DNA of 64,000 nt from positions 60,744 to 124,743 of the forward strand of contig JAETPW010000007.1 of NCBI GenBank assembly GCA_021771025.1, written 5' to 3'. This stretch comes from Clostridiaceae bacterium (GTDB taxonomy: Bacteria; Bacillota; Clostridia; TANB77; CAG-508). The position numbers and the translations under genes are program-made. Under the pieces are notes generated by a model. That model saw only the letters and a program-made list of their open reading frames with translations, was not told the DNA's origin and searched no databases. How positions within the stretch are numbered: position 1 is the first letter of the stretch; each line of letters opens with the position of its first letter. Shown here piece by piece: positions 4,794-64,000 of the stretch.

Positions 4794-4961
4794 GGTTAAT
4801 TTATCCTCGAAAGATCACTTTCTTTTTATCTTACTTTAGCGTTGGAAATAGTTAGATTTAGTTAGTGAAAGAAAATAAGTAATGAATAAAACCAGTGAAT
4901 ACTATCTCTAAATATAGTATTCATTGGTTTTTGTCGTTACTAGATAATAGTTTTTACGAAT

Positions 4962-5160
4962 GAGTCCGCTCTGAACCCAAGGCATCTGTAGTATTTTTGG
5001 GATAAATTTAGTCTTCCATAGCAGGGGCATTTTAAAACCCTTAAGTCCCTAACGAAGAGGCCTGTAATCGGGTTTTAAGGCTGACGCGGGTCTTAGGGAA
5101 CTGTCAGACGTAAATTTATCCCAAAAATACTACAGATACCTTGGGTTCAGAGCTACTTTG
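4962..5160. repeat. MITE-like structured repeat, family S, copy 1 (about 199 bp with about 50-bp terminal inverted repeats)
   Basis: The left arm AGTCCGCTCTGAACCCAAGGCATCTGTAGTATTTTTGGGATAAATTTA is the reverse complement of the right arm. The conserved core TCCATAGCAGGGGCATTTTAAAACCCTTAAGTCCC...GGGTTTTAAGGC...TCTTAGGGAACTG is shared with copies at 55959-56156 and 58988-59106. Confidence 0.8.
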
Positions 5161-5265
5161 TTGGAAAAGATTATTCAGTAACTTTTTGTTCATAAATGAT
5201 CTCAATTTGTAGAAAAAAATAAAAAAATATGTTATAGTGTAAAAATAAAATAGGAGGAAAATAAC

Positions 5266-6135
5266 ATGGAATGGGATTTATTTGTTTCACATGCTTCAGA
5301 AGATAAAGATGACATTGTAAAACCGTTAGTCCAAGAATTAGAAAGCTATGGATTAAAAGTATGGTATGATGAATTTGAATTAAAGATAGGAGATAGTTTA
5401 TCAGAGTCAATAGATAAGGGAATTATTCACTCTAAAAATGGTTTACTGATAATCAGTAAAAGTTTTCTGAATAAAAATTGGACCGATTATGAATTAAAAA
5501 GTTTTATTATGAAAGAAACTGAACAAGGCGGAAATATTTTACCAATTTGGCACAATGTTACTAAAAAAGATATGATGAATAGAAGTTTATTTCTTGCCGA
5601 TAAATTTGCATTATCTTCTAGTATAGGAGTAAAAAAATTGGCCATAAAAATTTTACAAAAAATTAGACCAGATATATTAAGTAGTTATGCTTTAAAAAGT
5701 GCTGTTAGAAATGCTTATGCAGAAGAAAAGGGAAAATCAGAGAAAGTTAGCATTGAAGAGTTAAGAGATGGAAAAATAGTCCACAAATCACTTCCTAACT
5801 ATATTGTAGCTTCAAGCTTTTTGATTAGTCAAATATTTTCTGATGTATGGGATTCAGATTTTAATGACTTTATTGAAAACCTAGCAAGGGATTGGGATTA
5901 TGATAGAGAATTTTTTATCTGGAATGTCATTACCAGTTCCTATTTGATGTTTATCAGAAATAATAAAATTTCTTTTGATGATACGAAGAAGAAGAGAAAG
6001 GTCTTTGGTGATTTAGTTAATTTGTCATTTGGAATTGTAGAGCCAACTTTTCTTAGTAAAGATGAATTTAATATTTTAATACAGATTTATAAGTATAATT
6101 ATGATTTTATAGATCAATTTGGTCTGAAATCGTGA
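5266..6135 (+). CDS. TIR-domain protein (N-terminal Toll/interleukin-1 receptor domain, about 135 aa, plus an uncharacterised roughly 150-aa C-terminal domain)
   Basis: DLFVSHASEDKD box 1, VWYDEFELKIGDSL, and NWTDYELKSF, which matches the catalytic-glutamate motif WCLDEL of NADase TIRs. Strong SD site AGGAGG 8 nt upstream. Very AT-rich gene with no partner gene. Confidence 0.85.
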   Translation: MEWDLFVSHASEDKDDIVKPLVQELESYGLKVWYDEFELKIGDSLSESIDKGIIHSKNGLLIISKSFLNKNWTDYELKSFIMKETEQGGNILPIWHNVTKKDMMNRSLFLADKFALSSSIGVKKLAIKILQKIRPDILSSYALKSAVRNAYAEEKGKSEKVSIEELRDGKIVHKSLPNYIVASSFLISQIFSDVWDSDFNDFIENLARDWDYDREFFIWNVITSSYLMFIRNNKISFDDTKKKRKVFGDLVNLSFGIVEPTFLSKDEFNILIQIYKYNYDFIDQFGLKS

Positions 6136-6261: not shown

Positions 6262-6355
6262 GGTAACGAATAAACGTAACTACTCAGATGGTGCATAAAT
6301 CTAGTCCGCTCTCAAGGGGATATAGGAAGACCATCTGAGTAGTTACCGAATAAAC
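6262..6355. repeat. hairpin element with flanking 9-bp direct repeat (related to family S; contains the AGTCCGCTCT motif)
   Basis: 17-bp perfect inverted repeat GTAACTACTCAGATGGT/ACCATCTGAGTAGTTAC around a roughly 37-nt loop carrying TAGTCCGCTCTCAAGG, flanked by CGAATAAAC on both sides. Confidence 0.6.
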
Positions 6356-6471: not shown

Positions 6472-9039
6472 ATGTACATTTTTAACCGCATTACTGTTAA
6501 TCCACAATTACCAAAACGAATCGAAAAATTAGCTGAAATTGCTAATAATTTATGGTGGGCGTGGAATTCAGAATTTTTAAGACTATTTAAAAAAATAGAT
6601 AAAGATCTATGGGAGGAATCTGGAAAAAATCCTGTCAAATTTCTCCGTCAAGTTTCTCAAGATCGTCTAGAAGAAGCATCAAAAGACATTCTTTTTTTGC
6701 GTGACTATGATCGCGTAGTAGAAAATTTTGAAGATTATATGAATAGCAAAAACACTTGGTTTGCTAATCGTTATCCAGAAAATAAAAATGACTTAATTGC
6801 TTATTTTTCAGCAGAATATGGCTTAGATGAAACCATTCCCATTTATTCAGGGGGCTTAGGTATTTTATCAGGAGACCATTTAAAATCAGCTAGTGATTTA
6901 GGAATTCCTCTAGTAGCGGTAGGATTATTATATAAAAATGGTTATTTTCATCAAAAAATTGATGGAAATGGTAAACAACAAACCGAATACCATGACATAG
7001 ATTTATACAATATGCCAATTCTTCCGGTAAAGGACGAAAAAGGCGAAGACTTAATGATCTACATCAAATTTCCCAAAAGAAGAATTTATCTAAAAGTATG
7101 GCAAATTAATGTAGGAAGAGTAAAATTATATTTACTTGACTCAGATATCGAAAAAAATAATCCAGAAGATCGTGATGTTACTTTGCGCCTATATGGTGGT
7201 GACCAAGAGATGAGAATCCGCCAAGAAATCGTTTTAGGTATGGGAGGAGTTAATCTACTTACTCGTGCTTTAAAACTAAAACCAACCGTTTATCACATGA
7301 ATGAAGGGCACTCTGCATTTTTAACGTTAGAATTAATCAAAAACATCATCAAAGAAAAAGAAGTTTCCTTTGATTTAGCAAAAGATATCGTTAGTTCAAA
7401 AACAGTATTTACTACTCACACACCAGTACCAGCAGGAAACGATATTTTTCCAATTTCTTTAGTAGAAAAATACTTCAAAGACTTCTGGCCAAGAATTGAC
7501 CTATCTCGTGAAGAATTTTTAAAGATGGGAATGAAACCATGCCAAGATTTAGAACCAGGATTTAATATGGGAATATTAGCCTTAAAAATTGCTGGAAAGA
7601 AAAATGGCGTAAGCAAACTTCATGGAGCAGTATCCAGAGAATTATTTGGAGAAGTTTGGCCAGAGATAGCCGCCAATGAATCACCAATCGGTCATGTTAC
7701 CAATGGAATTCATACTTGTTCATGGCTTGCTCCCAATTTAAAGGCTTTATACAATAAATATTTAATTCCTTATTGGCAAGATAATATTCAACACGATTAT
7801 GTTTGGGAAAAAATCAAAAACATTCCTGATGATAAATTATGGGATGCCCACCAAGATCGCAAAAATAAATTACTAAAAATCGTAAAAGACAACACAACCG
7901 AACGCCTAAGAAGATCAGGCTATCCTTATGAAGAAATAACCTCAATTGTTTCAAAATTAGATCCAAATGCACTAACCATTGGATTTGCCAGAAGATTTGC
8001 TACCTACAAAAGAGCAACCTTGATTTTTAAAGACTTAGAACGAATTACTCAAATCTTAAATAACAGTGATCGTCCAATTCAACTTATCTTTGCTGGAAAA
8101 GCCCATCCTGCTGACAAAGAAGGGCAAGACTTAATCAAATATATCCATGAAGTATCCATGATGCCACAATTTAAAGGCAAAATATTCTTATTGGAAAACT
8201 ACAATATTGCCATGTCACGTTACTTAATCAGTGGGGTAGACGTATGGCTTAACAACCCAAGAAGGCCAATGGAAGCATCAGGAACCAGCGGGCAAAAAGC
8301 ATCTGTCAATGGAGTGTTAAACTTCAGTGTATTAGACGGATGGTGGGCAGAAGGCTATAACCAAGAAAATGGTTGGACCATTGGAACAAACGCCGAATAC
8401 GATTCCTACGAAGCCCAAGACATGGCAGATAGCCAAAGTATGTATCGAACATTAGAAGAAAAAATTGTTCCTGCTTATTATGCCAAAGACAAAAATGGGG
8501 TCTCCCGAAAATGGATCAATTTAATGAAAAACTCAATTATCACCACAGGAGGAAAATACAGCACATCTCGTATGTTAGTTGACTACACAAGAGACCTATA
8601 TATACCTCTATGCAACCTAACCAATGAATACTACGAAAATGTAGACGATGTAGCATCTTATCACGCATGGAAACAAGAAATATACACCAATTGGAAAGAC
8701 ATTAAACTGCATCAAAAAAATAACTTAGACAACATCACCATTGATGCCGGAAATCAAATTGAGGTAAAATGTGAGGTAGAATTACCTAATATTGATCCAG
8801 AACACATCAGTGTGGAATGTTACTATGGAAAAATATTAGAAAATGGAGTAGTAGAAAACGTAACCATCATTCCAATGAATCTAGTAGAAATAAATGAAGA
8901 AACAAAAACGTATGGATACACAACCAAAATAGAACTAAAAACAGGAGGAAACTACGGTTATACCTTCCGCATTATGCCAAAACATGAGATGTTATTAGAA
9001 CCAGCCAATTTAAATTTAATTAAATGGATAACGAAATAG
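6472..9039 (+). CDS. glgP: alpha-glucan (glycogen/maltodextrin) phosphorylase, GT35 family
   Basis: 855 aa; DUF3417-type N-terminus, NEGHSAF motif, and a pyridoxal-phosphate lysine region (FARRFATYKR). Confidence 0.85.
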   Translation: MYIFNRITVNPQLPKRIEKLAEIANNLWWAWNSEFLRLFKKIDKDLWEESGKNPVKFLRQVSQDRLEEASKDILFLRDYDRVVENFEDYMNSKNTWFANRYPENKNDLIAYFSAEYGLDETIPIYSGGLGILSGDHLKSASDLGIPLVAVGLLYKNGYFHQKIDGNGKQQTEYHDIDLYNMPILPVKDEKGEDLMIYIKFPKRRIYLKVWQINVGRVKLYLLDSDIEKNNPEDRDVTLRLYGGDQEMRIRQEIVLGMGGVNLLTRALKLKPTVYHMNEGHSAFLTLELIKNIIKEKEVSFDLAKDIVSSKTVFTTHTPVPAGNDIFPISLVEKYFKDFWPRIDLSREEFLKMGMKPCQDLEPGFNMGILALKIAGKKNGVSKLHGAVSRELFGEVWPEIAANESPIGHVTNGIHTCSWLAPNLKALYNKYLIPYWQDNIQHDYVWEKIKNIPDDKLWDAHQDRKNKLLKIVKDNTTERLRRSGYPYEEITSIVSKLDPNALTIGFARRFATYKRATLIFKDLERITQILNNSDRPIQLIFAGKAHPADKEGQDLIKYIHEVSMMPQFKGKIFLLENYNIAMSRYLISGVDVWLNNPRRPMEASGTSGQKASVNGVLNFSVLDGWWAEGYNQENGWTIGTNAEYDSYEAQDMADSQSMYRTLEEKIVPAYYAKDKNGVSRKWINLMKNSIITTGGKYSTSRMLVDYTRDLYIPLCNLTNEYYENVDDVASYHAWKQEIYTNWKDIKLHQKNNLDNITIDAGNQIEVKCEVELPNIDPEHISVECYYGKILENGVVENVTIIPMNLVEINEETKTYGYTTKIELKTGGNYGYTFRIMPKHEMLLEPANLNLIKWITK

Positions 9040-9100
9040 GGAATAGGGAAAAATTAGCTAGGGAAAAAAGGGGACGCCCCAAACTTCCCTAGCTAAAAAT
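9040..9100. repeat. intergenic repeat family B (nested hairpin with a GGGGACGCCCC core)
   Basis: CTAGGGAAAAAAGGGGACGCCCCAAACTTCCCTAG. Similar copies at 20111-20160, 20701-20750 (reverse), 54842-54892 and 58859-58910, all immediately after stop codons. Confidence 0.7.
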
Positions 9101-9126
9101 TTGATAAAAAAAGAGCCACTAATTGT

Positions 9127-10910: not shown

Positions 10911-10980
10911 GTCTACCTCCTTGTCAATTCCTAAATTTACTGTTATAATATCATAAAATTAAACAAGGGTCAAACTTTTT

Positions 10981-11040
10981 CGTTTTGGGGACGGTTCTCA
11001 AAACGAAAAAATCTTCCGTTTGAGAACCGTCCCCAAAACG
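10981..11040. repeat. palindromic repeat family R (GGGGACGGTTC core)
   Basis: A 25-bp near-perfect inverted repeat, CGTTTTGGGGACGGTTCTCAAAACG / CGTTTGAGAACCGTCCCCAAAACG. Relatives at 51049-51133, 54061-54127, 57651-57710 and 50243-50280. Confidence 0.7.
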
Positions 11041-11061
11041 AAAAAGAGAAAGGAAAAAAGA

Positions 11062-13669: not shown

Positions 13670-14338
13670 ATGAGGAGTTTTACGATGAGAAAAAAGAAGT
13701 TAGGAAGATGGAGAGAAGTACTTCAAAATCATATTGGTAATAATCGAAAAGAATATATCATTGTGACATTATTTTTTATCATTGGCGTATTTTTAGGGGT
13801 ACTCTTTATTAATTATACGGGAGAAAGCCAGCATACTGAAATTTCTACGTATTTAAATCAGTTTTTAACAAAAGTGAATGAGAAACAAGAGATTGATCAA
13901 ATGGCAATGCTAAAGAATAGTCTCTGGGAAAACATTGTTTTGACGATTACCATTTGGTTTTTTGGCACTACCCTGATTGGTCTTCCTGTGGTGTTTGGTA
14001 TGTTGATTTATCGAGGATTTTGTTTGGGATATACGATTTCAGCTTGTATTCAAGTTTTGGGTTTTTCTAAAGGGATTGTTTTTGTTTTGTCTACGCTGGT
14101 TGTACAGAATTTGATTTTTATTCCGGTATTACTTGCTTTAGCAGTTAGTGGATTTAAGCTTTATCAGTCAATTGTTAGGGATAAGCGAAAGGAAAATATT
14201 AAACTAGAAATGATTAGGCATACGGTTTTTGGTTTGGTGATGATGGTATTTTTGTGTTTGGCTTCTGTACTGGAGGTTTTCATTTCGGGCAATTTGCTTA
14301 AGGTGATTGTTCCACTTTGGGGGCAGGGTGGTGGATAA
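13670..14338 (+). CDS. spoIIM: stage II sporulation protein M
   Basis: Polytopic membrane protein with a SpoIIM-like N-terminus; located beside xerD as in Bacillus. Confidence 0.7.
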   Translation: MRSFTMRKKKLGRWREVLQNHIGNNRKEYIIVTLFFIIGVFLGVLFINYTGESQHTEISTYLNQFLTKVNEKQEIDQMAMLKNSLWENIVLTITIWFFGTTLIGLPVVFGMLIYRGFCLGYTISACIQVLGFSKGIVFVLSTLVVQNLIFIPVLLALAVSGFKLYQSIVRDKRKENIKLEMIRHTVFGLVMMVFLCLASVLEVFISGNLLKVIVPLWGQGGG

Positions 14339-14532
14339 ATTAATATGATTATCATTAGCCAAGTTTCCCTTTTTACACGGCCTCCTTTTTAGCAAGCTGT
14401 GGGAGGTAACAAGGTAGTAGCAAAAAAATGAAAAAATATCGAAAAATGTATTTACATTTTCGAAATTGTTTGATATAACATATATAGTTTATGTAAATAA
14501 AATATTTCAAATATAGGGGTAGGGGAAAAAAC

Positions 14533-15414
14533 ATGGAAAAACAATTAAAACTTTTTTTTGCATTTCTTGAAAATGAAAAAAAATTATCAAGTAACACTTT
14601 GCAATCATACAAAAGAGACTTAAAACAATTTAAACAATACTTAGAATATCGTGAAATCCATTATAATCGAGTAGATGAAGATGTTATCAAAGACTATACA
14701 AAAGAGTTAGAAGATGAAGGGAAAAAAGCATCTACTATTTCGAGATGTATTGCCTCTATTCGTTCATTCTATCAATTTGTGGTAAAAAAAGGAAAAGTAA
14801 AGAAAGATCCAACTGAACACATTCAATCTCCTAAAATCGAGAAAAGAGTACCAAGTGTGTTAACGGCAAAAGAAGTAGAATTATTATTAGAACAACCAAA
14901 AGATGTTGACTTAAAAGGAATTCGTGATAAAGCCATGTTAGAATTTGCCTATGCTACTGGAATGAGAGTAACCGAAATCATTTCTCTAGATATAGATGAT
15001 GTTAATGTAAAAGAAGGTTTTGTTACTTGTCACCATGCGGGAAAACAAAGGAACATTCCATTAGGAAATATGGCTCTTAAAGCTTTGACTGAATATATCG
15101 AAGAAGCAAGAGATGTATTAATCAAATATGAACAAGAAAGAGCTTTATTTGTTAACATCAATGGAAGAAGATTAACCAGACAAGGATTTTGGAAAATCAT
15201 CAAATATTATAAAGAACAAGCCCATATAACCAAAGAAATTACACCACATGTTCTTAGACATTCATTTGCTACCCATTTATTACAAAATGGTGCAGATTTA
15301 AAAGCTATTCAAACTATGCTTGGTCATTCTGATATTTCTTCAACACAAGTGTATATGCAATTTCAAGATGAAGGATTAAAAAACGTTTATCGTAAAGCAC
15401 ATCCTAGAGCATAA
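14533..15414 (+). CDS. xerD: site-specific tyrosine recombinase XerD
   Basis: LSSNTLQSYKRDL N-terminal SAM-like region; catalytic HVLRHSFATHLL...GHSDISSTQVY with the RHRY active-site tyrosine. Confidence 0.85.
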   Translation: MEKQLKLFFAFLENEKKLSSNTLQSYKRDLKQFKQYLEYREIHYNRVDEDVIKDYTKELEDEGKKASTISRCIASIRSFYQFVVKKGKVKKDPTEHIQSPKIEKRVPSVLTAKEVELLLEQPKDVDLKGIRDKAMLEFAYATGMRVTEIISLDIDDVNVKEGFVTCHHAGKQRNIPLGNMALKALTEYIEEARDVLIKYEQERALFVNINGRRLTRQGFWKIIKYYKEQAHITKEITPHVLRHSFATHLLQNGADLKAIQTMLGHSDISSTQVYMQFQDEGLKNVYRKAHPRA

Positions 15415-20074: not shown

Positions 20075-20110
20075 ATAAAAGAGGCTCCTTATGACAAGGA
20101 GCCTTTTACT

Positions 20111-20160
20111 ATAGGGATAGGGAAAATAGGGGGACGCCCTTTTTTTCCCTATTCCTATTC
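20111..20160. repeat. repeat family B copy
   Basis: AATAGGGGGACGCCCTTTTTTTCCCTATT. Confidence 0.6.
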
Positions 20161-20204
20161 TAGGACATCTTCTTATGATTTCTCTCTCTTTTCATGCTAA
20201 TCTT

Positions 20205-20700: not shown

Positions 20701-20750
20701 ATAGGGAAATTTTAGATAGGGAAGAAAAGGGCGTCCCCTTTATTTCCCTT
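20701..20750. repeat. repeat family B copy (reverse orientation)
   Basis: AGGGAAGAAAAGGGCGTCCCCTTTATTTCCCT. Confidence 0.6.
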
Positions 20751-20756
20751 TTTTTC

Positions 20757-21767
20757 TTATAATTCAATGCTAATGGCGTGTGCGATTCCGGGAATGGTTT
20801 CTCCTTGTTGGGAACTGGTGGAGTTCATTAAGGCTCCAGTAGCAATTAACAACATTTTTTTGATTTTCTTTTCTTGTAATTGTTTGAAGAAATAACCAGA
20901 AAATACTGATCCACAACATCCACAACCACTACCTCCTGCGTGAGTATCTTGTTTGGCTTTATCAAAAATAAGTACTCCACAGTCATTATAGTTGGATTTG
21001 ATGTTATATCCTTGTGAAGCTAATATATCAATCACGATTTCTTTTCCGATGTAGCCTAAGTCTCCACTAATGATAGCATCATAGTAACTTGGATTTCGTC
21101 CGGTGTCTAAAAAGTGGGTGACTAAGGTGTCGGCAAATGCTGGCGCCATAGCGGCTCCCATGTTATTTCCATCTTTTATTCCCATATCAATAATTTTTCC
21201 TGGGGTAATGGTGGTGATGAATGGGCCTTGTCCAGATTTGGATAAAATACAACTACCGGCACCAGTAACGGTCCATTGAGAAGTAGGTGGTCTTTGGTTT
21301 CCTAATTCTAGGGGAAAACGAAATTGCTTTTCTGCGCTACAAAAATGACTTGAAGTAGCACATAATACGTGTTCTGCAAAACTTTCTGTGCAAATAGCAC
21401 CTAAACTCATGGATTCTACGAAAGTAGAACAAGCACCAAATACACCAAAGAAAGGAACGTTTAATTCACGTAGACCAAAGCTTGAAGAAATACATTGATT
21501 GAGAAGGTCACCGGCAAAACAACAGTCAATTTCATCAATGGCGATTCCTGATTTAGAAATGAGGGTATTTACTGTTTCTTTGATGATTTTGCTCTCTGCT
21601 TTTTCCCAGGTTTTTTCTCCCCAAAATTCATCATCTAGTGTTTGATCAAAATATTTAGCAAGAGGGCCTTGTGCTTCTTTTGGTCCAACAATACTAGCAC
21701 AATCTAATATCGTTGGAGGGGTATCAAACTGAATGGTTTGTTTTCCTATTTTTTTCACGATTTTCAC
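20757..21767 (-). CDS. spoVAD: stage V sporulation protein AD (thiolase-like fold)
   Basis: 336 aa; ketoacyl-synthase/thiolase-like SpoVAD pattern (CSTFVESMSLG, GGSGCGC). Confidence 0.8.
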   Translation of the reverse strand: MKIVKKIGKQTIQFDTPPTILDCASIVGPKEAQGPLAKYFDQTLDDEFWGEKTWEKAESKIIKETVNTLISKSGIAIDEIDCCFAGDLLNQCISSSFGLRELNVPFFGVFGACSTFVESMSLGAICTESFAEHVLCATSSHFCSAEKQFRFPLELGNQRPPTSQWTVTGAGSCILSKSGQGPFITTITPGKIIDMGIKDGNNMGAAMAPAFADTLVTHFLDTGRNPSYYDAIISGDLGYIGKEIVIDILASQGYNIKSNYNDCGVLIFDKAKQDTHAGGSGCGCCGSVFSGYFFKQLQEKKIKKMLLIATGALMNSTSSQQGETIPGIAHAISIEL

Positions 21768-43617: not shown

Positions 43618-44094
43618 ATGGAAGAAAAAGACGTTATCCTTACCCAAGAAGGATATGAAAAGTTAGAAGAAGAATTAAATTTATTAAAAACAGATAAAAG
43701 AGCAGAGATTGCAGAAAGAATTAAAGTTGCTTTAGGGTTTGGAGATCTATCCGAAAACTCAGAATACGATGAAGCAAAAACAGCACAAGCAGAAAATGAA
43801 AACCGTATTGCTGAATTAGAAAACAAAGTAAGACACGCCAAAATTATTGATGAAAAAGACATTGATACAGACACTGTTCAAATTGGAAACATTGTTAAAG
43901 TATTAGACATGGAATTTGACGAAAAAATCGACTATACCATTGTTGGTTCAACAGAAGTAAATTTGGCTGAAAACAAAATTTCTAACGAATCACCTTTAGG
44001 ATCAGCTTTATTAGGAGCAAAGAAAAATCATGTAGTAGAAGTAAAAGCACCAGCAGGAGTCATGAAATATAAAATTTTGGACATTACCAAATAA
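43618..44094 (+). CDS. greA: transcription elongation factor GreA
   Basis: [18 protein letters not shown]... and acidic finger residues DLSENSEYD. Confidence 0.9.
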
Positions 44095-44250
44095 GAAAAA
44101 ATAAGGGAAAAAAATTATTTTATCTTTTGAAAAGAAGGATGATTTTTAACTAAAGATAAAATAATTTTTTTCCAAAAAGTATTGACAAACAAATGAAAAA
44201 GCTTTATAATAACTACTGTTACCGAGGAAACTTAGTAACCAACTAAATAT

Positions 44251-44565
44251 GGGTAGGTGGCCGAGTGGCTAAAGGCGGCAGACTGTGGTCTTTGGTAAAA
44301 ACAAAACCTAAACTTGCAGCTCTTGTCAGTAATGATAAGATGAACACCGGGCTAATTCGGGGAACTCTAAGGGTAGAAATACTGATGACAATCCCGAGCT
44401 AGGAAGAAAACTTCCGAGTGTAGAGACTTTATACCTGGTATCTTCTAAGCAGAAGATAAAGAGAAAGTCCAGACTACAAACATGGTAAAATGGTAGTGAA
44501 AACTATAGTAGTAAGAAATCTGTTCTCATTTGAGTACGATGGTTCGAATCCATCCCTGCCCACCA
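44251..44565 (+). tRNA. tRNA-Tyr (GUA) gene interrupted by a group I intron in the anticodon loop
   Basis: Exon 1 (44251-44286) gives acceptor GGGUAGG, D-arm GCC-GAGUGGCUAAA-GGC, and anticodon stem GCAGA plus CUGU. Exon 2 (44516-44565) gives AAA, UCUGU, a long variable arm, T-arm GAUGG-UUCGAAU-CCAUC, CCUGCCC-A-CCA. The spliced anticodon loop is CUGUAAA. The exon sequence is very close to Bacillus tRNA-Tyr. Confidence 0.7.
44287..44515 (+). ncRNA. group I self-splicing intron (229 nt) within tRNA-Tyr
   Basis: The upstream exon ends in U and the intron ends in G (omega-G). P-, Q-, R- and S-like elements are present (AATTCGGGGAAC, AATCCCGAGC, TCCAGACTACA, AAACTATAGTAG), and GCAG 30 nt inside the intron can pair with the exon end CUGU. 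Confidence 0.65.
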
Positions 44566-44595
44566 AAAATACAAGGAAACTTGTATTTTATTTTT
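44562..44595 (+). repeat. 34-bp direct repeat (att-like), left copy; also the tRNA terminator hairpin
   Basis: Identical to 49076-49109. Confidence 0.8.
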
Positions 44596-44638
44596 CTATT
44601 ACACACGAACAAAGGTTCTAAATAAAAAGGGGAAGAAT

Positions 44639-45019
44639 ATGAATTTTGCTACTAATAAAGAAAAGGGAAATTCAGGATTAGGCATAGCCATTGCCTATTT
44701 TTCGACGAATGGATATACTGTTTCCATACCGTTAAACGACACTCAAGATTATGATTTGATTGTAGAGAAAGACGGGAAATTGAAAACGATACAAATAAAA
44801 GCAACTGGATGTAAAACTAAATGGGGAAATTATCAAGTAGCTTTAAAAAGTTGTGGTGGAACAAAGGGGAAAAGTTATAAGACAGTCATTGAGACGAGAG
44901 TAGATGAATTATTTATCGTAAATGATAGGCAAGAGATGTACCTAATTCCCATTAATGATATTAAGAATAAATCAACTTTAACCTTATGTTCAAAGTATGA
45001 TAAATATAGAGTTTACTAA
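44639..45019 (+). CDS. small PD-(D/E)xK-fold nuclease-like protein (YraN/Hjc-like pattern)
   Basis: GNSGLGIAIAYFSTNGYTVSIPLNDTQDYDLIVEKDGKLKTIQIKAT follows the G-GE-A--L---GY-I....GEIDLI....L-FVEVK template of UPF0102-type nucleases. Confidence 0.4.
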   Translation: MNFATNKEKGNSGLGIAIAYFSTNGYTVSIPLNDTQDYDLIVEKDGKLKTIQIKATGCKTKWGNYQVALKSCGGTKGKSYKTVIETRVDELFIVNDRQEMYLIPINDIKNKSTLTLCSKYDKYRVY

Positions 45020-45183
45020 TATTTCTGTGCTTTAAATTTTGTAGTAAATTTAAAATTGGTTTAAATAAGTCTCTAATAGAAAAATGCAAGATATGCAGTT
45101 ACTCATTTCTGTAAGTAATTGTTTTTTTTGTAATTTTGTGATATAAAATTGGTAAAATAAAAATTTATACGAGGAGAAAAGTA

Positions 45184-45733
45184 AATGGATAATTATTTTA
45201 TAATACATGGAAGCTTTGGAAGCCCGTTGTAAATTGGTTTAGTTGGTTACAAGATTTTATATCATGTGATGGAAAACAAGTATATGTACCACAATTTCCA
45301 ATAGGAGTAGGTTATCAAAATTATGGAAATTGGAGTAAACTACTTAAATACTATTTAGATTTAGGTTTAATCAATAAAAATACAACAATAATCGGTCATA
45401 GTATTGCACCAGTATTTATATCAAGATTTTTAATTGAAAATGAAGTAAAGGTCAAAAAATTAATATTTGTATGTGGATTTAACAATTATTTAGGAATAGA
45501 CGAAGAATATGATACAGTAAATAAAACAATGTATTTTGATAATTTGAAAGATGTAAAGAAATATGCAAATGAAATTATTTGTTTCTATTCAGAAATGATC
45601 CATATGTAAAATACGAAGTAGAAAGAGAATTTGCAGACAAGATTCGGGGCAGAGCAAGTTCTATTACCTAATGCAGGACACATAAATAGCGAAAGTGGAT
45701 ATGACACATTTGAAGACATAGCAAATTATATTT
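45184..45733 (+). pseudogene. YdeN/RBBP9-like serine hydrolase, disrupted by frameshifts
   Basis: MDNYFIIHGSFGSP, then stop. Other frames give NWFSWLQDFISCDGKQVYVPQFP...IIGHSIAPVFISRF...ICFYSE and then a frameshifted C-terminus. The ORF track shows nothing of 60 aa or more here. Confidence 0.5.
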
Positions 45734-45746
45734 AAAGAGGTAAAAA

Positions 45747-46095
45747 ATGAAAATAGTAAAATTTAGTGATGCACAAACAGTAAAAAATAGTCATACAAGT
45801 AAATTATTAGAATATTCGATAGATTTAAATGATAAAGATATTGATTTTTGTATAAATACAATTAGTGGTCAATATCCAGAAAAAGGATATTGCACTAATG
45901 AAAGATGCAAAGAAATCTGTTATATACTAGAGGGAAAGGGAACTCTTAATAAAAGAGATGAAAGTATTAATTTTGAAAAAGGTGTGTATTTTAATAGAAA
46001 AAGAAGAAATTTACTATTGGAATGGAAATTGCGAAATAATTATGATATGCACTCCTGCTTGGTATAAAGAACAATGTAAGTTATTAGATTTATAG
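45747..46095 (+). pseudogene. cupin-domain protein with probable C-terminal frameshift
   Basis: The ORF ends with FNRKRRNLLLEWKLRNNYDMHSCLV, whereas the +1 frame reads the cupin-typical EKEEIYYWNGNCEIIMICTPAWYKEQ. Confidence 0.4.
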
Positions 46096-46121
46096 AAAAA
46101 ATTTTAAAGGAGATAAATAAT

Positions 46122-47174
46122 ATGTCAAATCAATTTCAACTATTAGATGATCACTTTATAAAAATTGTAAAAGATATTGAAAAGGATATTTTAGATACAA
46201 GATATAATATCATTTCAAGGGCAAATAAAGAGGTGGTAAATTTTTATTTAAGACTTGGAAAAATAATTAGTGATAATGCTAAATATGGGAATAATTTTAT
46301 TAATAGATTATCAGTAGCATTAAAATTAGATTTTCCAGATGAGCAGGGATTTTCGGCTCGTAATCTAGCAAGAATGAGAAAAGTATATGAAGCATATAAA
46401 GATTTATCTAGTATTCCAAAAGAATTAGAAATAATATCATGGTCACAAAATTGTGTTTTAGTAGATAAAATTGAAGATATTGATAAAAGAGTTTGGTATG
46501 CTAAGCAAATTATTGAAAATGGTTGGTCTAAAACTGTATTAAGCCATCAAATTGATTTAGAATTATATGAAAGACAAGCATTACCAGATAAAATGACCAA
46601 TTTTAATGATAAGCTACCTATTGCACAAAGCGAATTTGCTAGAGATATGATAAAAGATCCATATATTTTTGAATTAGCTAACATAGGAAAAAGAGCAAAA
46701 GAAAGAGATATTGAAAAGGCAATGTTAGAAAGAATAAAGAATGTGTTGCTTGAATTAGGCAAAGGTTTTAGTTTTGTTGGAAATCAATATAAAATTTCAA
46801 CCAATGATAATGATTATTATATAGATTTATTATTTTATCACTTGGATTTAAGATGTTTTGTAGTTGTAGAATTAAAAAATACAGAGTTTAAACCTGAATA
46901 TGTTGGACAATTAGGATTTTATGTAACAGCAGTTGATGAAACTTTGAAAAAAGAAACAGACAATGAAACGATAGGATTATTACTTTGTGAAGATAAGGAT
47001 AAACTAACAGTTGAATGGTCTTTAAAAGGTGTAAATGCACCAATAGGAGTAGCTTCATATAAAGTGAAAAATGTTATTCCAAAAGAAATAATGGAGAAAT
47101 TACCAACGGAAGAAGAATTAAATTTATATATAAAAAAATTACCAAATGAGGAAATTGAAGGAGAAAGTGATTAG
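46122..47174 (+). CDS. DUF1016 (YhcG-like) protein with C-terminal PD-(D/E)xK nuclease domain
   Basis: YhcG-type N-terminal domain; C-terminal nuclease motif D-LLFYH...VVVELK. Paralog of the fragment at 1-279. Confidence 0.75.
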   Translation: MSNQFQLLDDHFIKIVKDIEKDILDTRYNIISRANKEVVNFYLRLGKIISDNAKYGNNFINRLSVALKLDFPDEQGFSARNLARMRKVYEAYKDLSSIPKELEIISWSQNCVLVDKIEDIDKRVWYAKQIIENGWSKTVLSHQIDLELYERQALPDKMTNFNDKLPIAQSEFARDMIKDPYIFELANIGKRAKERDIEKAMLERIKNVLLELGKGFSFVGNQYKISTNDNDYYIDLLFYHLDLRCFVVVELKNTEFKPEYVGQLGFYVTAVDETLKKETDNETIGLLLCEDKDKLTVEWSLKGVNAPIGVASYKVKNVIPKEIMEKLPTEEELNLYIKKLPNEEIEGESD

Positions 47175-47180
47175 TATTTT

Positions 47181-47206
47181 GAAATTTGCCACTGGTGGCA
47201 AATTTC
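47181..47206 (+). other. palindromic hairpin between the DUF1016 gene and the downstream gene
   Basis: GAAATTTGCCACTGGTGGCAAATTTC. A variant, GAAATTTGCCGCCAGTGGCAAAATTT, follows the next gene at 49042-49067. Confidence 0.6.
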
Positions 47207-47230
47207 ATATATAGATTGTATGAGGAAAAA

Positions 47231-49036
47231 ATGAAAGAATTAGATAATAAAATAAATTTAGGAAAAGTAACGGAAAATCACTTTAAAGAAAGTAAATCAA
47301 TAACAATTTTAAGAGAAATTGTAGAGAAAAATAATAGAATTAAGGTAAGAGCAACTGAAGCAGATAAAATAGCAAATTTAGATGGTAAAGTAGTAATAAT
47401 AGATAAAAATAGTTTCGAAAGGATTCATATTGAAATACAAGTAAAAACATTACCAGAAAAATATAATTTGAGGAAACAGTATTCATATAGTTGCGATACA
47501 AAAGCTTTCAATGTTGTTTTAGAACATATTACATTTAATTCAGTTGTATTATTTTTGGTTGATGAGCAAACAAATAGAGTATTTTGGAAATTAATTTCAA
47601 ATGAATATGCAAAAAGTTTGAATATCGGAAATCAAGAAAAAAAGACAATATATTTTAATGATCAAGATTTATATAGTGAAAATAATTTTATAGAAAAGAT
47701 AAGCGATTATTGTGATTCACTTTGTGAAATAATAGATAAAAAAGATGCTAATAAAAGTTTAATTTCATCAAATATAGATGAATATAGTACAGAATATATA
47801 GAGATACAAATGCAAGTTGACAGATTAAAAAATATATTCGATAATGAATTAAAACATATTAAAGATGTATTTTTTAAATATGTATGGAAATTTGGAATAT
47901 CATATAATAAGTTTCAAAAGCAAACTGCAATGGGCATTTATTTTATTACATATGGAAAGAATGATACTTTAATAAAAAGATTTGACCCTAGACTAAATTA
48001 TATACATATGTCTATTAATTTTCAAAAAAATATTACATTAGAAGCATATATTAATGAATGGTTAGAAGAAGTAAAAAAACAATATTATTTAAAAGAACCA
48101 ATTCTTGTGAAAAATTTATCAGATGATATATTGAATGAAATTGTATTTAGTTTTTTAGATAAACTAACAATGAATATTAAAGTATTAGAAGATAAAAATA
48201 GACCATACACATACTATAAAGATGAGGAAAAAGTCAATAATATAGTTAATCTTATAAATGCTTTAGAATTATTTTATGAAGAAATAATAAAAACGAAAGA
48301 TTTGTCAAATGTAAGTAGTGCTGTTGCTTTTCTTACACCTACATATAATTTGACTGGCAAATTCTTACTCTTTAACCCTCTTATACAATTTAATGCTGAT
48401 GAAATAAAATTGTTAAACCAATATTTTAATCAAACTAATCCCAATGTCCCTCTAAAATTTTTGGATAATGGAGAAGATAAAAAAATACAATTAAGTTTTT
48501 TAGCAATACAAGAATTACAGAAACGTACAAGGGACAGTATAAAAAGAATATGGAATAAGAAAAATATAGTAAAATGTAAAGAAGATTTTGCAAAAGAAGT
48601 TCAATGTATTAGAACAGGGTATTCTAAAGAAGATTTAATAATAAATTCAAAGCACTTTTTTGATATTATTGCCGAAAATTATAATTTTGTGTTTAATAAG
48701 TCTAGTTATTCAGATAAATATTATTTAGATGATTTACATTTAATAGTGTTAGATGAAAACGAAATACAAACATATAATGATTATATTACCCAAAATAATG
48801 TTTTCGAAGTGAAAAGGATTTGTAATGATATAAAAATTGATGAAGAGAATATTATTTCTATAATTGAATCTAATTTAGAATGCTTATTTTTGCTAGATAC
48901 TCCACTATATGAAACTGTTAGAATATTGTTATATATTGGTATTATGAAAAATAATGACTATAAAGTAAAAGATGAAAATGTAAACTATAGTGTTAAATTT
49001 GAAGAATTACCTATCATTAATTATTATATAGATTAA
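47231..49036 (+). CDS. 601-aa protein with N-terminal DUF4365/Mrr-like PD-(D/E)xK-type domain and a large uncharacterised C-terminal region
   Basis: ATG at 47231 with a GAGGA RBS. N-terminus LDGKVVIIDKNSFERIHIEIQVKT...FWKLIS fits the D...E.QVK signature of the DUF4365 restriction-endonuclease-like fold. The remaining roughly 430 aa have no recognisable motif. About 24% GC. Confidence 0.55.
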   Translation: MKELDNKINLGKVTENHFKESKSITILREIVEKNNRIKVRATEADKIANLDGKVVIIDKNSFERIHIEIQVKTLPEKYNLRKQYSYSCDTKAFNVVLEHITFNSVVLFLVDEQTNRVFWKLISNEYAKSLNIGNQEKKTIYFNDQDLYSENNFIEKISDYCDSLCEIIDKKDANKSLISSNIDEYSTEYIEIQMQVDRLKNIFDNELKHIKDVFFKYVWKFGISYNKFQKQTAMGIYFITYGKNDTLIKRFDPRLNYIHMSINFQKNITLEAYINEWLEEVKKQYYLKEPILVKNLSDDILNEIVFSFLDKLTMNIKVLEDKNRPYTYYKDEEKVNNIVNLINALELFYEEIIKTKDLSNVSSAVAFLTPTYNLTGKFLLFNPLIQFNADEIKLLNQYFNQTNPNVPLKFLDNGEDKKIQLSFLAIQELQKRTRDSIKRIWNKKNIVKCKEDFAKEVQCIRTGYSKEDLIINSKHFFDIIAENYNFVFNKSSYSDKYYLDDLHLIVLDENEIQTYNDYITQNNVFEVKRICNDIKIDEENIISIIESNLECLFLLDTPLYETVRILLYIGIMKNNDYKVKDENVNYSVKFEELPIINYYID

Positions 49037-49075
49037 AATGTGAAATTTGCCGCCAGTGGCAAAATTTATTTTCAA

Positions 49076-49109
49076 ACCAAAAATACAAGGAAACTTGTAT
49101 TTTATTTTT
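49076..49109 (+). repeat. 34-bp direct repeat (att-like), right copy
   Basis: Identical to 44562-44595. Confidence 0.8.
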
Positions 49110-51048: not shown

Positions 51049-51133
51049 CTGTCCCTAAAACGAAAAAATCTTCCTTTTGAGAACCGTCCCCAAAAAGAAA
51101 AAAACTTCTTTTTGGGGACGGTTCTTAAAAAGA
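51049..51133. repeat. repeat family R copy (18-bp perfect palindrome AGAACCGTCCCCAAAAAG / CTTTTTGGGGACGGTTCT)
   Basis: Read directly from the sequence. Confidence 0.7.
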
Positions 51134-51206
51134 AAAAATTAAGATTTTCTCTATTTGTTCTTAAGGTTTTTTGTGGTATACTATTGATAATAAGAGGAGG
51201 AGAGTT

Positions 51207-54060: not shown

Positions 54061-54127
54061 AGAAAATCTTCTTTTTGGGGACGGTTCCGAAAACGAAAAA
54101 ATTTTCTTTTTAGGGACAGGTTTCAAG
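54061..54127. repeat. repeat family R copy
   Basis: TTTTTGGGGACGGTTCCGAAAACGAAAAAATTTTCTTTTTAGGGACAGG. Confidence 0.65.
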
Positions 54128-54169: not shown

Positions 54170-54844
54170 ATGAAAAAAATGGTTGCTCTCATTTGTGTAT
54201 TGTTGGTTATTTTTGTTGGTATGTTTGTCAAACAAAATTATGACCGTAATCAAAAAAACATCACAGCAGATGAAGTTCAAAAAATAGAATCGTTTATTGC
54301 CAGTGTATATGCGTGGAAAGAAATAACCGGTGAAGCATTACCAAGCTTTCAACAAATTAATGAGGCTCCTGAACGTTGGATTTGGGAAGTCGTGAAAAAA
54401 AATTTAGAAGAGTATAGTTTAACTTATGCTCAATTACAAGATAAAGCAAAAGAGATCTTTGGCCCAGACTTTACCAAACAGTTTCCTGAGCAAGGAAACG
54501 AAGCATTTACTTGGCAAGAAGAAACAGGAACTTATCTGCCTACTGAAATTCAAATTGATGAGCAAGATGATTTATTTTTAATTCACCAGATTAGTAAAAG
54601 TAAAGAAGGGTATGAAGTTGAACTAATAGAATATGTAGAAGATTATTCTTCTTATGAAAATCACCAGATTCGTATTCAAAACTTACAAGGAGAGACAATT
54701 TCTTTATTGGATTCATCAAAAAGTGAAACCGAAGTGATTGAATTAGTTAAACAAAATGCAGATAAGTTTTCCAAAAAGAAAATTAGCTTAAAAAAAGACG
54801 GAAAAGATAAATTTATCATAACGAAAGTAGAAGAAAAAAAGTAG
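54170..54844 (+). CDS. hypothetical membrane-anchored protein
   Basis: N-terminal TM/signal anchor; no recognisable domain. Confidence 0.45.
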   Translation: MKKMVALICVLLVIFVGMFVKQNYDRNQKNITADEVQKIESFIASVYAWKEITGEALPSFQQINEAPERWIWEVVKKNLEEYSLTYAQLQDKAKEIFGPDFTKQFPEQGNEAFTWQEETGTYLPTEIQIDEQDDLFLIHQISKSKEGYEVELIEYVEDYSSYENHQIRIQNLQGETISLLDSSKSETEVIELVKQNADKFSKKKISLKKDGKDKFIITKVEEKK

Positions 54845-54892
54845 GGAAAAGAAGGGGACGCCCTTTTTTTCCCTATTAAAAATTTCCCTACG
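54842..54892. repeat. repeat family B copy
   Basis: GTAGGGAAAAGAAGGGGACGCCCTTTTTTTCCCTAT. Confidence 0.6.
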
Positions 54893-55066: not shown

Positions 55067-55960
55067 ATGGAAGATTTATCACAATTAGAAATGTGTACAA
55101 TTTGTCCACATACTTGCCAAGTTAATCGTTTGCAAAAGCAAAAGGGGAGATGTGGAGCAGAGGATACAGTGCGTATAGCCTTAGCATCGGTCTATCACTT
55201 TGAAGAGCCATGCCTAAGTGGAAAAAGAGGGTCAGGTACTGTATTTTTTTCTCACTGTACGATGAGGTGTGAGTATTGTCAAAATTATGAAATTAGTAGT
55301 TTAGGCAAAGGAAAAGAAATAACAGTAGAAGAATTAGCAGAAATTTTCTTAAAGCAACAAGAAAAGCAGGTTCATAATATTAATTTGGTAACCCCGACGA
55401 GTTATGTGCCACAAATCAAAAAAGCAATTGAGTTAGCTAGAAATCAGGGACTACAACTGCCAATTGTCTATAATACGAATGGCTATGAAACAGTAGAAAC
55501 GATAAAGGAATTAGATGGCTATGTAGATATTTATTTACCGGATTTCAAATATGCAGAAGATGAATTGGCAAAGCGTTTATCTCATGTAGATCATTATTTT
55601 TCGACAGTGGCACAGGCCATTTTAGCCATGCAAAAACAAGTAGGAGATGCGGTTTTTGATGACGAAGGCATGATGCAAAAAGGATTGATCATTAGGCATT
55701 TGATTTTACCGAATCATATCATTAATACAAGAAAAGTACTCAAGTGGATTAATGATTATTTGCCAAATGTGTATGTAAGCATTATGGCTCAATATTTTCC
55801 TACTTACCGAGCAAAGCAAATAGAAGAGATTAATCGAAAGATAACTGATGAGGAATATCAAAAAGTGGTGCGTTATTTAGATCGTTTAGTACTAACGAAT
55901 GGGTATTTACAGGAATTAGGAGAACATGAGGAGGAATATGTGCCAAAGTGGGAGGGATAA
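55067..55960 (+). CDS. radical SAM activating-enzyme-like protein (PflA/AmmeMemoRadiSam-type)
   Basis: N-terminal CTICPHTCQV...GRCG cluster plus CTMRCEYCQN radical-SAM CxxxCxxC. Confidence 0.65.
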   Translation: MEDLSQLEMCTICPHTCQVNRLQKQKGRCGAEDTVRIALASVYHFEEPCLSGKRGSGTVFFSHCTMRCEYCQNYEISSLGKGKEITVEELAEIFLKQQEKQVHNINLVTPTSYVPQIKKAIELARNQGLQLPIVYNTNGYETVETIKELDGYVDIYLPDFKYAEDELAKRLSHVDHYFSTVAQAILAMQKQVGDAVFDDEGMMQKGLIIRHLILPNHIINTRKVLKWINDYLPNVYVSIMAQYFPTYRAKQIEEINRKITDEEYQKVVRYLDRLVLTNGYLQELGEHEEEYVPKWEG

Positions 55961-56156
55961 GTCCGCTCTGAACCTGAGGTATCTGTAATATTTTTTAGAT
56001 AAATTTAGTCCTCTATAGCAGGGGCATTTTAAAACCCTTAAGTCCCTCACAAAGAAGCTTGTTATCGGGTTTTAAGCCTAACGTGAGTCTTAGGGAACTG
56101 TTAGACGTAAATTTATCTAAAAAATATTACAGATACCTCAGGTTCAGAGCTACTTT
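55959..56156. repeat. MITE-like structured repeat, family S, copy 2
   Basis: AAGTCCGCTCTGAACCTGAGGTATCTGTAATATTTTTTAGATAAATTTA...core...TAAATTTATCTAAAAAATATTACAGATACCTCAGGTTCAGAGCTACTTT. The terminal-repeat differences from copy 1 are compensated in both arms. It overlaps the radical SAM stop codon. Confidence 0.8.
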
Positions 56157-56274
56157 AGTGTAAAAGTATTATTAGCCAGTAACTCAAATTTTAGAAAAAT
56201 ACCCGAAAAATGTAGAAAAAAGAAATGCGGTATGGTATACTCATATTGAGTAAGAAAACAAGGAGGAAAATAAA

Positions 56275-58823: not shown

Positions 58824-58858
58824 TACAAAGAAAAAAGGAAAAAAGAAAAAAGAAAAAG

Positions 58859-58910
58859 AGGGAAGAAGGGGGACGCCCCTTTTTTCCCTATACAATTTTC
58901 CCTATTTTTC
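58859..58910. repeat. repeat family B copy
   Basis: GGGAAGAAGGGGGACGCCCCTTTTTTCCCTAT. Confidence 0.6.
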
Positions 58911-58987
58911 AATCCATTGGTTATTATTCACAGCTTGCTGAAATTGGTAACCGTGTAAAAAAGGAAGCCTAGCTAATGGTGATCATA

Positions 58988-59106
58988 TTAATTTAACCTT
59001 CCATAGCAGGGTCAATTTAAAACCCTTAGGTCCCTCACATGGAAGCCTGTTATCGGGTTTTAAGCCTAACGTGGGTCTTAGGGAACTGTCAGGTATAAAT
59101 TATAAC
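58988..59106. repeat. family S copy 3 (core only, lacks the long terminal inverted repeats)
   Basis: AATTTAACCTTCCATAGCAGGGTCAATTTAAAACCCTTAGGTCCCTCACATGGAAGCCTGTTATCGGGTTTTAAGCCTAACGTGGGTCTTAGGGAACTGTCAGG. Confidence 0.7.
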
Positions 59107-59199: not shown

Positions 59200-59902
59200 A
59201 TGCCCTATATCGAATTTAACCATGTACATAAAGAGTATCAGATGGGAGAAATCGTCATCAATGCCCTTAAAGACACTAACTTTCAAATAGAAAAAGGAGA
59301 ACTAGTCGTTATTGTTCGGCCCAAGTGGAGCAGGAAAAACCACCACATTAAACATATTAGGGGGAATGGACACAGCAACATCAGGAGAAGTCTGGGTAGA
59401 TGGGAAAGAAGTAACCAAACTAAAAAATAAAGAATTAATTCAATATCGTAGAGAAGATATTGGGTTTGTTTTTCAATTCTATAACTTAGTCCAAAACTTA
59501 ACAGCAATTGAAAATGTAGAATTGGCCACACAAATTTGTAAAGACTCACTAGATCCCAAAGAAGTAATGAAAAAAGTAGGTCTAGAGGATCGTATGAAAA
59601 ATTTTCCCTCTCAATTATCAGGAGGAGAACAGCAAAGAGTTGCCATAGCAAGGGCAATCGCGAAACATCCCAAATTGTTACTATGCGACGAACCAACGGG
59701 AGCTCTAGATTATAAAACAGGTAAACAAATTTTACAATTATTGCAAGATATGGCACGAAAAGAAAACATGACAGTCTTAATTATTACCCATAATGGAGCG
59801 TTAGCCCCAATGGCAGACAAAGTCATTCACTTCAAAAATGGTACGGCCCAAGACATTCAAAAAAATGAACACCCAATTCCTATTCAAGAAATCGAATGGT
59901 AA
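59200..59902 (+). pseudogene. ABC transporter ATP-binding protein (MacB/LolD-like), +1 frameshift in the P-loop region near 59310-59316
   Basis: The ORF from 59200 reads ...GELVVIVRPKWSRKNHH and then stops. ORF 59312-59902 begins FGPSGAGKTTTLN. Deleting one C in GTTCGGCCCAAGT restores the VGPSGAGKTTT frame. Signature [14 protein letters not shown]. Confidence 0.7.
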
Positions 59903-59927
59903 TAAAATGAAATTCGATAGCCACCCT

Positions 59928-59972
59928 GTCCCTAAAATGACAAAATGACCAAAATTTACCCCGTCCCCAATC
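59928..59972. repeat. repeat family A copy, reverse orientation
   Basis: The reverse complement reads ATTGGGGACGGGGTAAATTTTGGTCATTTTGTCATTTTAGGGACAGGGTGG. Confidence 0.7.
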
Positions 59973-59992
59973 TGGCAAAAGGAGGAGATACC

Positions 59993-63885: not shown

Positions 63886-63930
63886 CATTTGTCTCAATAA
63901 CTTTTACAGAATAATAGTTTTGAGGAATAA

Positions 63931-64000
63931 GTCCGCTCCAAAGTGAGATGTTTGCTACTTCTTTTTTGATTCATTTAGTATTTCATAGCGTGGTCTTTTT
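63931..64000. repeat. family S-related element, truncated by the window end
   Basis: AAGTCCGCTCCAAAGTGAGATG...TTTCATAGCGTGGTC parallels the left end and core start of family S. Confidence 0.45.

Follow-up and report, generated by a model that had tools for sequence, protein, structure and literature searches.

Does an inverted repeat whose two arms change in step report selection on a folded RNA, or the copying of one arm from the other at the level of the DNA? The question is raised by a short repeat in a 64-kb stretch of DNA (the window; positions refer to it unless a locus with an L label is named). A first-pass annotation had described this repeat, Family S, as MITE-like and had read the mirrored differences between its arms as covariation consistent with selection on an RNA structure or a DNA cruciform. 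The host is an uncultured, low-GC, spore-forming mouse-gut Firmicute and its relatives, a poorly sampled lineage; the window has 32.5% G+C, and its + strand is the leading strand. Family S is a previously undescribed MITE family, ordinary in kind and unusual in detail, and no specific description of such an element was found in the literature.

Results

Copies and Anatomy of Family S

The window holds four copies of Family S, a foldback remnant (36800-36897) and a solo arm (14333-14410) (Table 1). Three copies from two other contigs (L001 and L049) bring the family to seven full copies in three genomes. The elements are 223-290 bp long and are without coding capacity; some copies have stops in all frames. 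Each copy has the same layout: from the outside inward, GTTAC...GTAAC tips are followed by imperfect outer arms, an inner stem of 34-43 bp and a core of ~95 nt. There are two types of arm, A and B, which can hardly be aligned to each other. Stem length is constant within a type, with 43 bp in type A and 30-35 nt of variable arm in type B. The copies have the inner junction AATTTA...TAAATT in common, which in copy 4 is an inverted, not a direct, repeat. All seven full copies carry CTAC, read as GTAG from the opposite strand, at the stem's 3′ base; it abuts the stem in type A and lies 6 nt off in L049b and 7 nt off in the other type B copies.

The repeat had been given an extent of about 200 bp, 4962-5160. 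It is real but longer, and with its outer arms and tips copy 1 runs from 4936 to 5182. Over 4960-5169 and 55957-56166, respectively, copies 1 and 2 are 87% identical, and in both the inner arms are 43 nt each and 100 nt apart. Copy 3 can be aligned to them over the core. It had been taken for a core alone; in fact it has a left arm of ~80 nt of another type, and its right arm is kept in other strains (L016 1-62 and L018 1-75, both of which start with its reverse complement). The motif AGTCCGCTC occurs four times in the window (4963, 6303, 55960 and 63930) against 0.07 expected. It had been placed at or near all copies, but among them it is confined to type A and is absent from copy 3 and from the hairpin at 36837. 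Its occurrence reported near 63934 lies at 63930 and marks a fourth copy, which is cut by the window end. Full copy 4 was recovered from same-species contigs (L016 4856-5110; 245 bp, 4858-5102) and is identical in 10 of the 10 contigs shown.

The hairpin noted at 36837-36897 was confirmed, with arms of 29 nt that are 93% complementary. It is a snap-back duplication within the foldback remnant, and the symmetry centre of this duplication is the core's own TTTTAAAA, a short palindrome. The solo arm is fixed in all strains seen.

Table 1. Positions of Family S copies, their parts and related elements in the window
Feature	Position	Strand	Remarks
Copy 1, full type A, 247 bp	4936-5182	+	tips GTTAC...GTAAC
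Copy 1, outer imperfect arms	4936-4967, 5154-5182	+	sequence
Copy 1, inner stem	4968-5010 / 5111-5153	+	42/43 Watson-Crick
Copy 1, core	~5011-5110	+	between inner arms
Copy 1, left target-site duplication TTTTTGTC, 8 bp	4928-4935	+	doubles as T-tract of upstream terminator hairpin
Copy 1, right target-site duplication	5183-5190	+	TTTTTGTT in window
71-bp hairpin MITE, GTAAC...GTTAC, 17-bp perfect arms	6276-6346		loop with AGTCCGCTCT
Solo type B right arm, GTAAC tip	14333-14410	+	overlaps TAA stop of spoIIM
Remnant	36800-36897		type B left arm plus inverted duplication of arm end and first ~33 nt of core
Copy 2, type A, left outer arm missing	55961-56183	+	right outer arm to GTAAC at 56183
Copy 2, inner stem	55965-56007 / 56108-56150	+	43/43 complementary
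Copy 2, core	56008-56107	+	between inner arms
Copy 3, type B	58920-59106	+	~80-nt left arm 58920-58998 (tip GTTAT), core and inner junction to 59102
Copy 3, right end	59103-59106	+	TAAC tip alone left after 74-nt deletion of right arm
Copy 4, type A, third arm sequence	63903-64000	+	cut by window end

Copies outside the Window

A scan of genome contigs with a pattern of the core gave one match, L001, a Lachnospiraceae MAG contig that starts with a copy. Core pattern scans of JGI metagenomes and IMG/VR had no match, and neither did blastn of copy 1 against phages and plasmids. When the core was translated as a pseudo-peptide and searched, a single called ORF (P0121) was retrieved that led to L049, where two further full copies (L049a and L049b) lie 260 nt apart in opposite orientation; the pseudo-peptide search in the other frame had no match. 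In all 49 fetched loci, blastn found no additional copies. The window's proteins recur in mouse-gut metagenome contigs, and those short-read contigs end at the element. Family S breaks short-read assemblies of this gut lineage, and this accounts for its near-invisibility in public databases. Just downstream of the element in L001 (230-420) is a tandem array of 14-16-nt units (GGAGCAATCAAAAC / GGAAAGCAATCAAAAC).

Arm Pairs Change Together and the Core Is Conserved

The inner stems are paired at 43/43, 42/43, 40/43, 36/36, 42/42 and at least 34/34 positions, the value of 40/43 Watson-Crick pairs belonging to copy 4 as read in L016. Type A arms align without gaps among copies 1, 2 and 4. Between copies 1 and 2, six stem pairs differ. 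Five have changed on both sides with Watson-Crick pairing kept, and one has changed on a single side, giving C.A in copy 1, so that the earlier claim that every difference is mirrored holds for five of the six. The mirroring itself is far stronger than had been claimed: between copies 1 and 4, 19 of the 43 stem pairs are changed on both sides, and 18 of these 19 are Watson-Crick in both copies. Copies 2 and 4 also differ at 19 stem pairs, all of which keep Watson-Crick pairing. Only four of 241 inner-stem pairs are not Watson-Crick (one G.T and three A.C), and all four are of the transition type.

Core identity between copies is 76%-96%, compared with only 45%-60% for arms of different types; one set of comparisons gave 45%-71% between arm types and 76%-89% for the cores. 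The ratio of arm to core divergence is ~1 for copies 1 and 2, rises to ~2.3 both in the comparison of copies 1 and 4 and in that of copy 3 with L001, and exceeds 10 for the adjacent pair L049a and L049b, in which the cores are 96% identical and the arms unalignable. At a guess, these like cores with unlike arms reflect local gene conversion. Among the window cores, the signs of gene conversion are mixed: ACGTG is common to copies 2 and 3, but most differences are private to copy 1. If templated correction acted alone, the arms should change at a neutral rate and no faster. The excess of arm over core divergence, about 2-fold or more, therefore calls for a constrained core, for conversion among the cores, or for the two together. 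The fastest-changing parts of the element are its long arms, yet these remain exact complements, and the centre is conserved.

Could the core be a separate mobile or converting module, which entered, or was gene-converted into, the apex of palindromic MITEs that already existed, so that the diversity of the arms is older? Such a module would fit the presence of the same core on two unrelated backbones, the type A and type B outer flanks, and the near-identical cores between unrelated arms in L049. Core-less hairpins and foldbacks with GTTAC tips also exist (L011 6920, L013 1420-1905 and window 6276-6346). However, searches turned up no empty type A or type B palindrome closed by a small loop, each type has its own fixed stem length, and the inverted AATTTA...TAAATT of copy 4 leaves the core without an insertion footprint of its own. 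This origin of the core is regarded as improbable.

Hypervariable segments of ~22-35 nt between conserved motifs also bring to mind acquired or programmable guides, spacer-like and directed against phage or host targets, which are displayed as a hairpin; the TIR-domain gene beside copy 1 would be in keeping with such a role. Eight arms had no phage match, however, four 22-mers were absent from IMG/VR, and the arms are unlike the elements' own flanks. Moreover, related arms differ by the substitutions and small indels of ordinary descent (copies 1 and 2; copy 3, the solo arm and L001; L049a and the 36800 remnant). A guide function is very improbable. The copying of arms from flanking DNA was considered separately and rejected, as there is no similarity.

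Inverted repeats around an intergenic segment of ~100 bp in a gut bacterium may likewise suggest a phase-variation switch, with the core turned back and forth between its inverted arms by a site-specific invertase. The orientation of the core relative to the asymmetric outer flanks is nevertheless constant in all seven copies, and copy 4 does not vary among the ten contigs. No promoter was predicted in the core, no invertase gene is adjacent, and both orientations at one locus were not seen in assembled contigs. A switch of this kind is barely credible.

A further reading makes the core a functional module, either an RNA that is cut free of a long double-stranded stalk or a site on folded single-stranded DNA, with the hypervariable, perfectly paired arms as specificity determinants instead of neutral spacers. 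Family S would then be a domesticated multi-copy RNA or single-stranded DNA system, borne on hairpins, of a kind undescribed in bacteria, which we consider decidedly improbable.

RNA Folding, Covariation and the Origin of Arm Complementarity

The first-pass annotation had suggested selection on structure. In the form of a structured RNA, the arms would be a processing stalk, a long double-stranded RNA cut, for example, by RNase III as in rRNA precursors, and the core a functional, 3′-UTR regulatory or terminator module. Several features agree with this reading. The unpaired regions are conserved and the paired regions variable, a U-rich run (CUACUUU) follows the stem, and copy 4 stands in place of an ancestral terminator hairpin. 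Six of the seven full copies lie 3′ of genes and are co-oriented with the flanking genes. The predicted folding energy is very low, with z scores for copy 1 of -11.6 on the + strand and -12.4 on the - strand. These energies, however, have no consistent strand preference, the better-folding strand being + in three copies and - in three; L049b is in the opposite orientation; and truncated and deleted copies persist.

The base pairs themselves also argue against an RNA. A fast-evolving RNA stem is expected to carry many G.U pairs on one strand, but a single G.T was found among all the stem pairs, and A.C mismatches are at least as frequent. In the core, no covariation was detected on either strand, and candidate core helices had no double change. 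The covarying internal stem reported earlier (GCCT/AGGC versus GCTT/AAGC) did not survive comparison of the copies: it needs a one-base register shift, has no double-sided change in the seven copies and is fully paired only in copy 1. A core pseudoknot (TTAAAACCC/GGGTTTTAA with GTCCCT/AGGGAAC) was considered and rejected, as its helices are invariant and the few changes present break pairs.

Prediction of promoters and of canonical terminators gave none within the element or at it. Rfam, to which the annotation had pointed, placed no family above threshold on the element. Across the whole window, the sole match in Rfam 15 was a tRNA, and with E values up to 10, full copy 1 and the cores of copies 3 and 4 gave nothing near a gathering threshold. 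The sub-threshold matches of the elements were of microRNA-like long-hairpin, snoRNA and CRISPR-repeat kinds only, all of them scoring far below the gathering scores. A structured RNA is therefore quite unlikely, and the earlier proposal of selection on RNA structure is not upheld.

Stems made almost purely of Watson-Crick pairs, the mixed strand preference and the lack of covariation in the core together point to a strand-symmetric process at the level of DNA instead of selection on RNA. Correction of quasi-palindromes by template switching is an established mutational route (PMC7202029), and compensatory changes that preserve hairpins have been reported in REPINs (PMC3116915). In Family S, one arm may be recopied from the other at the DNA level, which would keep the complementarity exact. 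Candidate routes are template switching at quasi-palindromes during replication and mismatch repair within an extruded hairpin. Restoration of arm complementarity by one of these two routes is most likely, judging from the pattern of paired changes. Indeed, the snap-back remnant at 36837 is the type of product expected of template switching.

Target Sites, Mobility and Decay

A clear target duplication is present at copy 1 alone among the Family S copies. The right flank of this copy in strains L041 and L046 is an exact TTTTTGTC, which gives a match of 8/8 with the left flank. No target duplication was found at the assigned tips of copy 3 (with the right end from L016), copy 4 or L049a, and the left end of copy 2 is deleted. 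An 8-bp target duplication suggests a DDE-type transposase. L013, from a human-gut relative, carries an almost fully palindromic foldback element of 485 bp (1420-1905), whose tips, GTTACAGTTCACAG, are common to type B outer arms and whose flanks, GGGTAACC and GGGCAACC, match at 7/8 positions. A solo end of this element forms a hairpin in the spacer between the radical-SAM gene and thyA (L011/L013 6920-6963). The 71-bp hairpin in the window is flanked by a 9-bp direct repeat, CGAATAAAC, at 6267-6275 and 6347-6355 (9/9), and is linked to Family S by motifs alone. Directly after this hairpin L040 diverges: the end of a type B element is inserted there, and the genes beyond it are not those of the window.

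Comparison of orthologous loci reveals empty sites in related species. At the copy 2 locus, L015 (radical-SAM protein 80% identical) is empty, and the stop of the gene runs into the thyA promoter; in the window, host sequence resumes exactly after GTAAC. The same site in L014 (protein 88% identical) carries a type B arm. The left outer arm of copy 2 and the left duplication appear to have been lost by a microhomology deletion of ~36 nt, which would also have created the TAA stop. Between the dCMP deaminase gene and mutS2, the spacer is 31 nt with a plain terminator hairpin in L011 and 273 nt with copy 4. In L041, copy 1 has an internal deletion between TTGGG repeats. The strains sampled all carry the insertion at these loci, and thus no recent transposition was caught.

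Pfam searches of ten window ORFs, including all five substantial minus-strand ORFs, revealed no transposase. A parent IS was sought through the L013 terminal repeat and in plasmid and phage collections, with chance matches only. The description of the repeat as MITE-like is nonetheless well founded: it is short and non-coding, has inverted termini and several copies, is absent from some orthologous sites, shows a target duplication at copy 1 and has no transposase among the nearby ORFs searched. Since the tips of its element are all that a DDE transposase requires, such an enzyme does not explain the perfect internal stem of 43 bp.

Alternatively, a folded single strand might be moved by a single-copy Y1 (HUH) transposase of the RAYT, IS200-like kind that recognises GTAG and a hairpin, with the arms perfected by repair of the hairpin intermediate. 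GTAG is found on the - strand at or near the stem base in every full copy, and REPs are palindromes preceded by GTAG (PMC8266576). REPINs, furthermore, have conserved ends, a variable hairpin spacer and frequent compensatory changes (PMC3116915), and the orientation bias of six in seven copies would also be consistent. Against this, a DDE enzyme, not an HUH one, would be expected from the inverted GTTAC/GTAAC tips and from the 8-bp repeats that flank copy 1 and the element in L013. Such a REP-type system would make no target duplications, and copy 1 has an exact one of 8 bp, though this is a single clear case. A 43-bp stem with a 100-nt loop far exceeds any REP, and GTAG lies on the template of the leading strand, where the analogy of IS608 would lead one to expect the other strand. 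Movement by an HUH enzyme is unlikely.

The inverted tips also invite comparison with integron attC sites (RYYYAAC...GTTRRRY). These were rejected: the tips of Family S are in the reverse order (GTTAC left, GTAAC right), the neighbours are housekeeping genes, and the only nearby tyrosine recombinase gene, beside the solo arm, looks Xer-type.

Gene Ends and Genomic Context

All Family S contexts are chromosomal housekeeping genes. Copies had been described as sitting immediately after stop codons, and this is true of copy 2 only, from which the radical-SAM gene takes its TAA stop. The distance from the stop codon is 143 nt for copy 1, with a terminator hairpin in between, and 97 nt for copy 3. 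Family S rewrites gene ends, with stops supplied to the radical-SAM gene and spoIIM and with terminators replaced.

Several neighbouring features were recorded. Directly downstream of copy 1, 5266-6135 encodes a TIR-domain protein (Pfam TIR_2, TIR); this gene sits between the P-type ATPase and glycogen phosphorylase genes and may represent a small defence insert. At 14533-15414, 120 nt downstream of the solo arm, is a gene for a tyrosine recombinase (Phage_integrase plus an N-terminal SAM-like domain), probably of the chromosomal Xer type and unrelated to the element. The region 44000-49100 is low in GC (27% G+C), has a strong GC skew and is bracketed by near-identical 39-nt repeats at 44562 and 49076. 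With genes for PD-(D/E)XK, YhcG/DUF1016 and DUF4365 proteins, it resembles an island of defence or mobile genes. Between copies 3 and 4, 59312-63280 encodes an ABC transporter pair (an ATPase and an FtsX-type permease of 1111 aa). In human-gut relatives, the dCMP deaminase gene directly follows the lyase gene. L027 and L028 (in their last 30 nt) diverge from the window right after the spore-photoproduct-lyase terminator (GTGCGACAGGCATG...), which indicates that the copy 3 region is structurally polymorphic in this species.

Other repeats are present in the window. Hairpins with arms of 29-33 nt (TTTTGGGGACGGTTCTCAAAACGAAAAA and its complement) follow genes at 10975-11046, 51071-51134 and 54069-54122, and this family looks like a repeated terminator-type palindrome. 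A second hairpin family, AGGGAAAA..GGGGACGCCCC..TTTTCCCT, is found at 9036-9103, 20096-20163, 20702-20758, 54820-54890 and 58835-58902, and the terminator immediately before copy 3 belongs to it. Yet another repeat, TGGGGACGGGGT...AGGGACAGGGT, occurs at 1168-1222, 34584-34638, 36684-36738 and 59922-59969; one of its copies lies ~100 nt upstream of the 36800 remnant.

Discussion

With moderate confidence, Family S is regarded as a non-autonomous foldback transposon, a MITE of REPIN-like architecture that is moved by a DDE-type enzyme and whose arms are recopied at the level of DNA. The mobile unit would be ~245-290 bp. An enzyme encoded elsewhere would move it and leave an 8-bp target duplication, as the flanks of copy 1 suggest. 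Copies settle in spacers at the 3′ ends of genes, where they can take the place of a native terminator hairpin or provide a gene with its stop codon. Deletions between short repeats would then reduce them to solo arms and foldback stubs. The slower core may be a cis-acting site for mobilisation or host tolerance, or it may be homogenised by gene conversion between copies.

These observations carry a caution for covariation-based RNA discovery, as repeats with long palindromes can pass naive covariation screens. If DNA-level recopying of the arms holds, Family S would be a case from nature in which mobile DNA evolves under templated correction of quasi-palindromes, and a tractable system in which to measure that process.

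Template switching at quasi-palindromes resembles what is seen in Family S in that imperfect inverted repeats become perfect by copying from arm to arm. It predicts strand-symmetric, Watson-Crick-only "covariation" and snap-back palindromes such as 36837-36897. In contrast to Family S, the process is familiar from laboratory reporters, as a mechanism behind mutational hotspots, and we know of no description of it as a force that maintains a natural repeat family.

In the REPIN/REP-RAYT system, as in Family S, non-autonomous intergenic hairpin repeats decay to solo halves and have GTAG at or near the hairpin base. REPINs share with Family S conserved ends around a segment in which only length and pairing are kept, with compensatory changes (PMC3116915, PMC8266576). 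They differ in size, at ~100 bp compared with ~250 bp for Family S. The perfect 43-bp stem of Family S bears a conserved apical core of 95 nt, whereas in REPINs the spacer is the least conserved part. Family S also has inverted GTTAC tips, an 8-bp target duplication at copy 1 and a Firmicute host, unlike REPINs.

Members of the IS6 family (IS26, IS257, IS1216) make 8-bp target duplications, like that of copy 1. Their end, GGTTCTGTTGCAAAG, resembles the GTTACAGTTCACAG of the type B and L013 tips at ~11/13 positions, with gaps needed for the match. Correia/NEMIS, ERIC, bcr1, RUP and BOX elements are non-coding MITEs of 100-300 bp with terminal inverted repeats and a target duplication. They are intergenic at gene ends and co-transcribed with their neighbours, and compensatory changes have been reported in them. 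In these classical MITEs, conservation is centred on the terminal repeats, which usually pair imperfectly. Family S differs in that its long inner arms are the fastest-changing part, yet perfectly complementary, and its centre is conserved.
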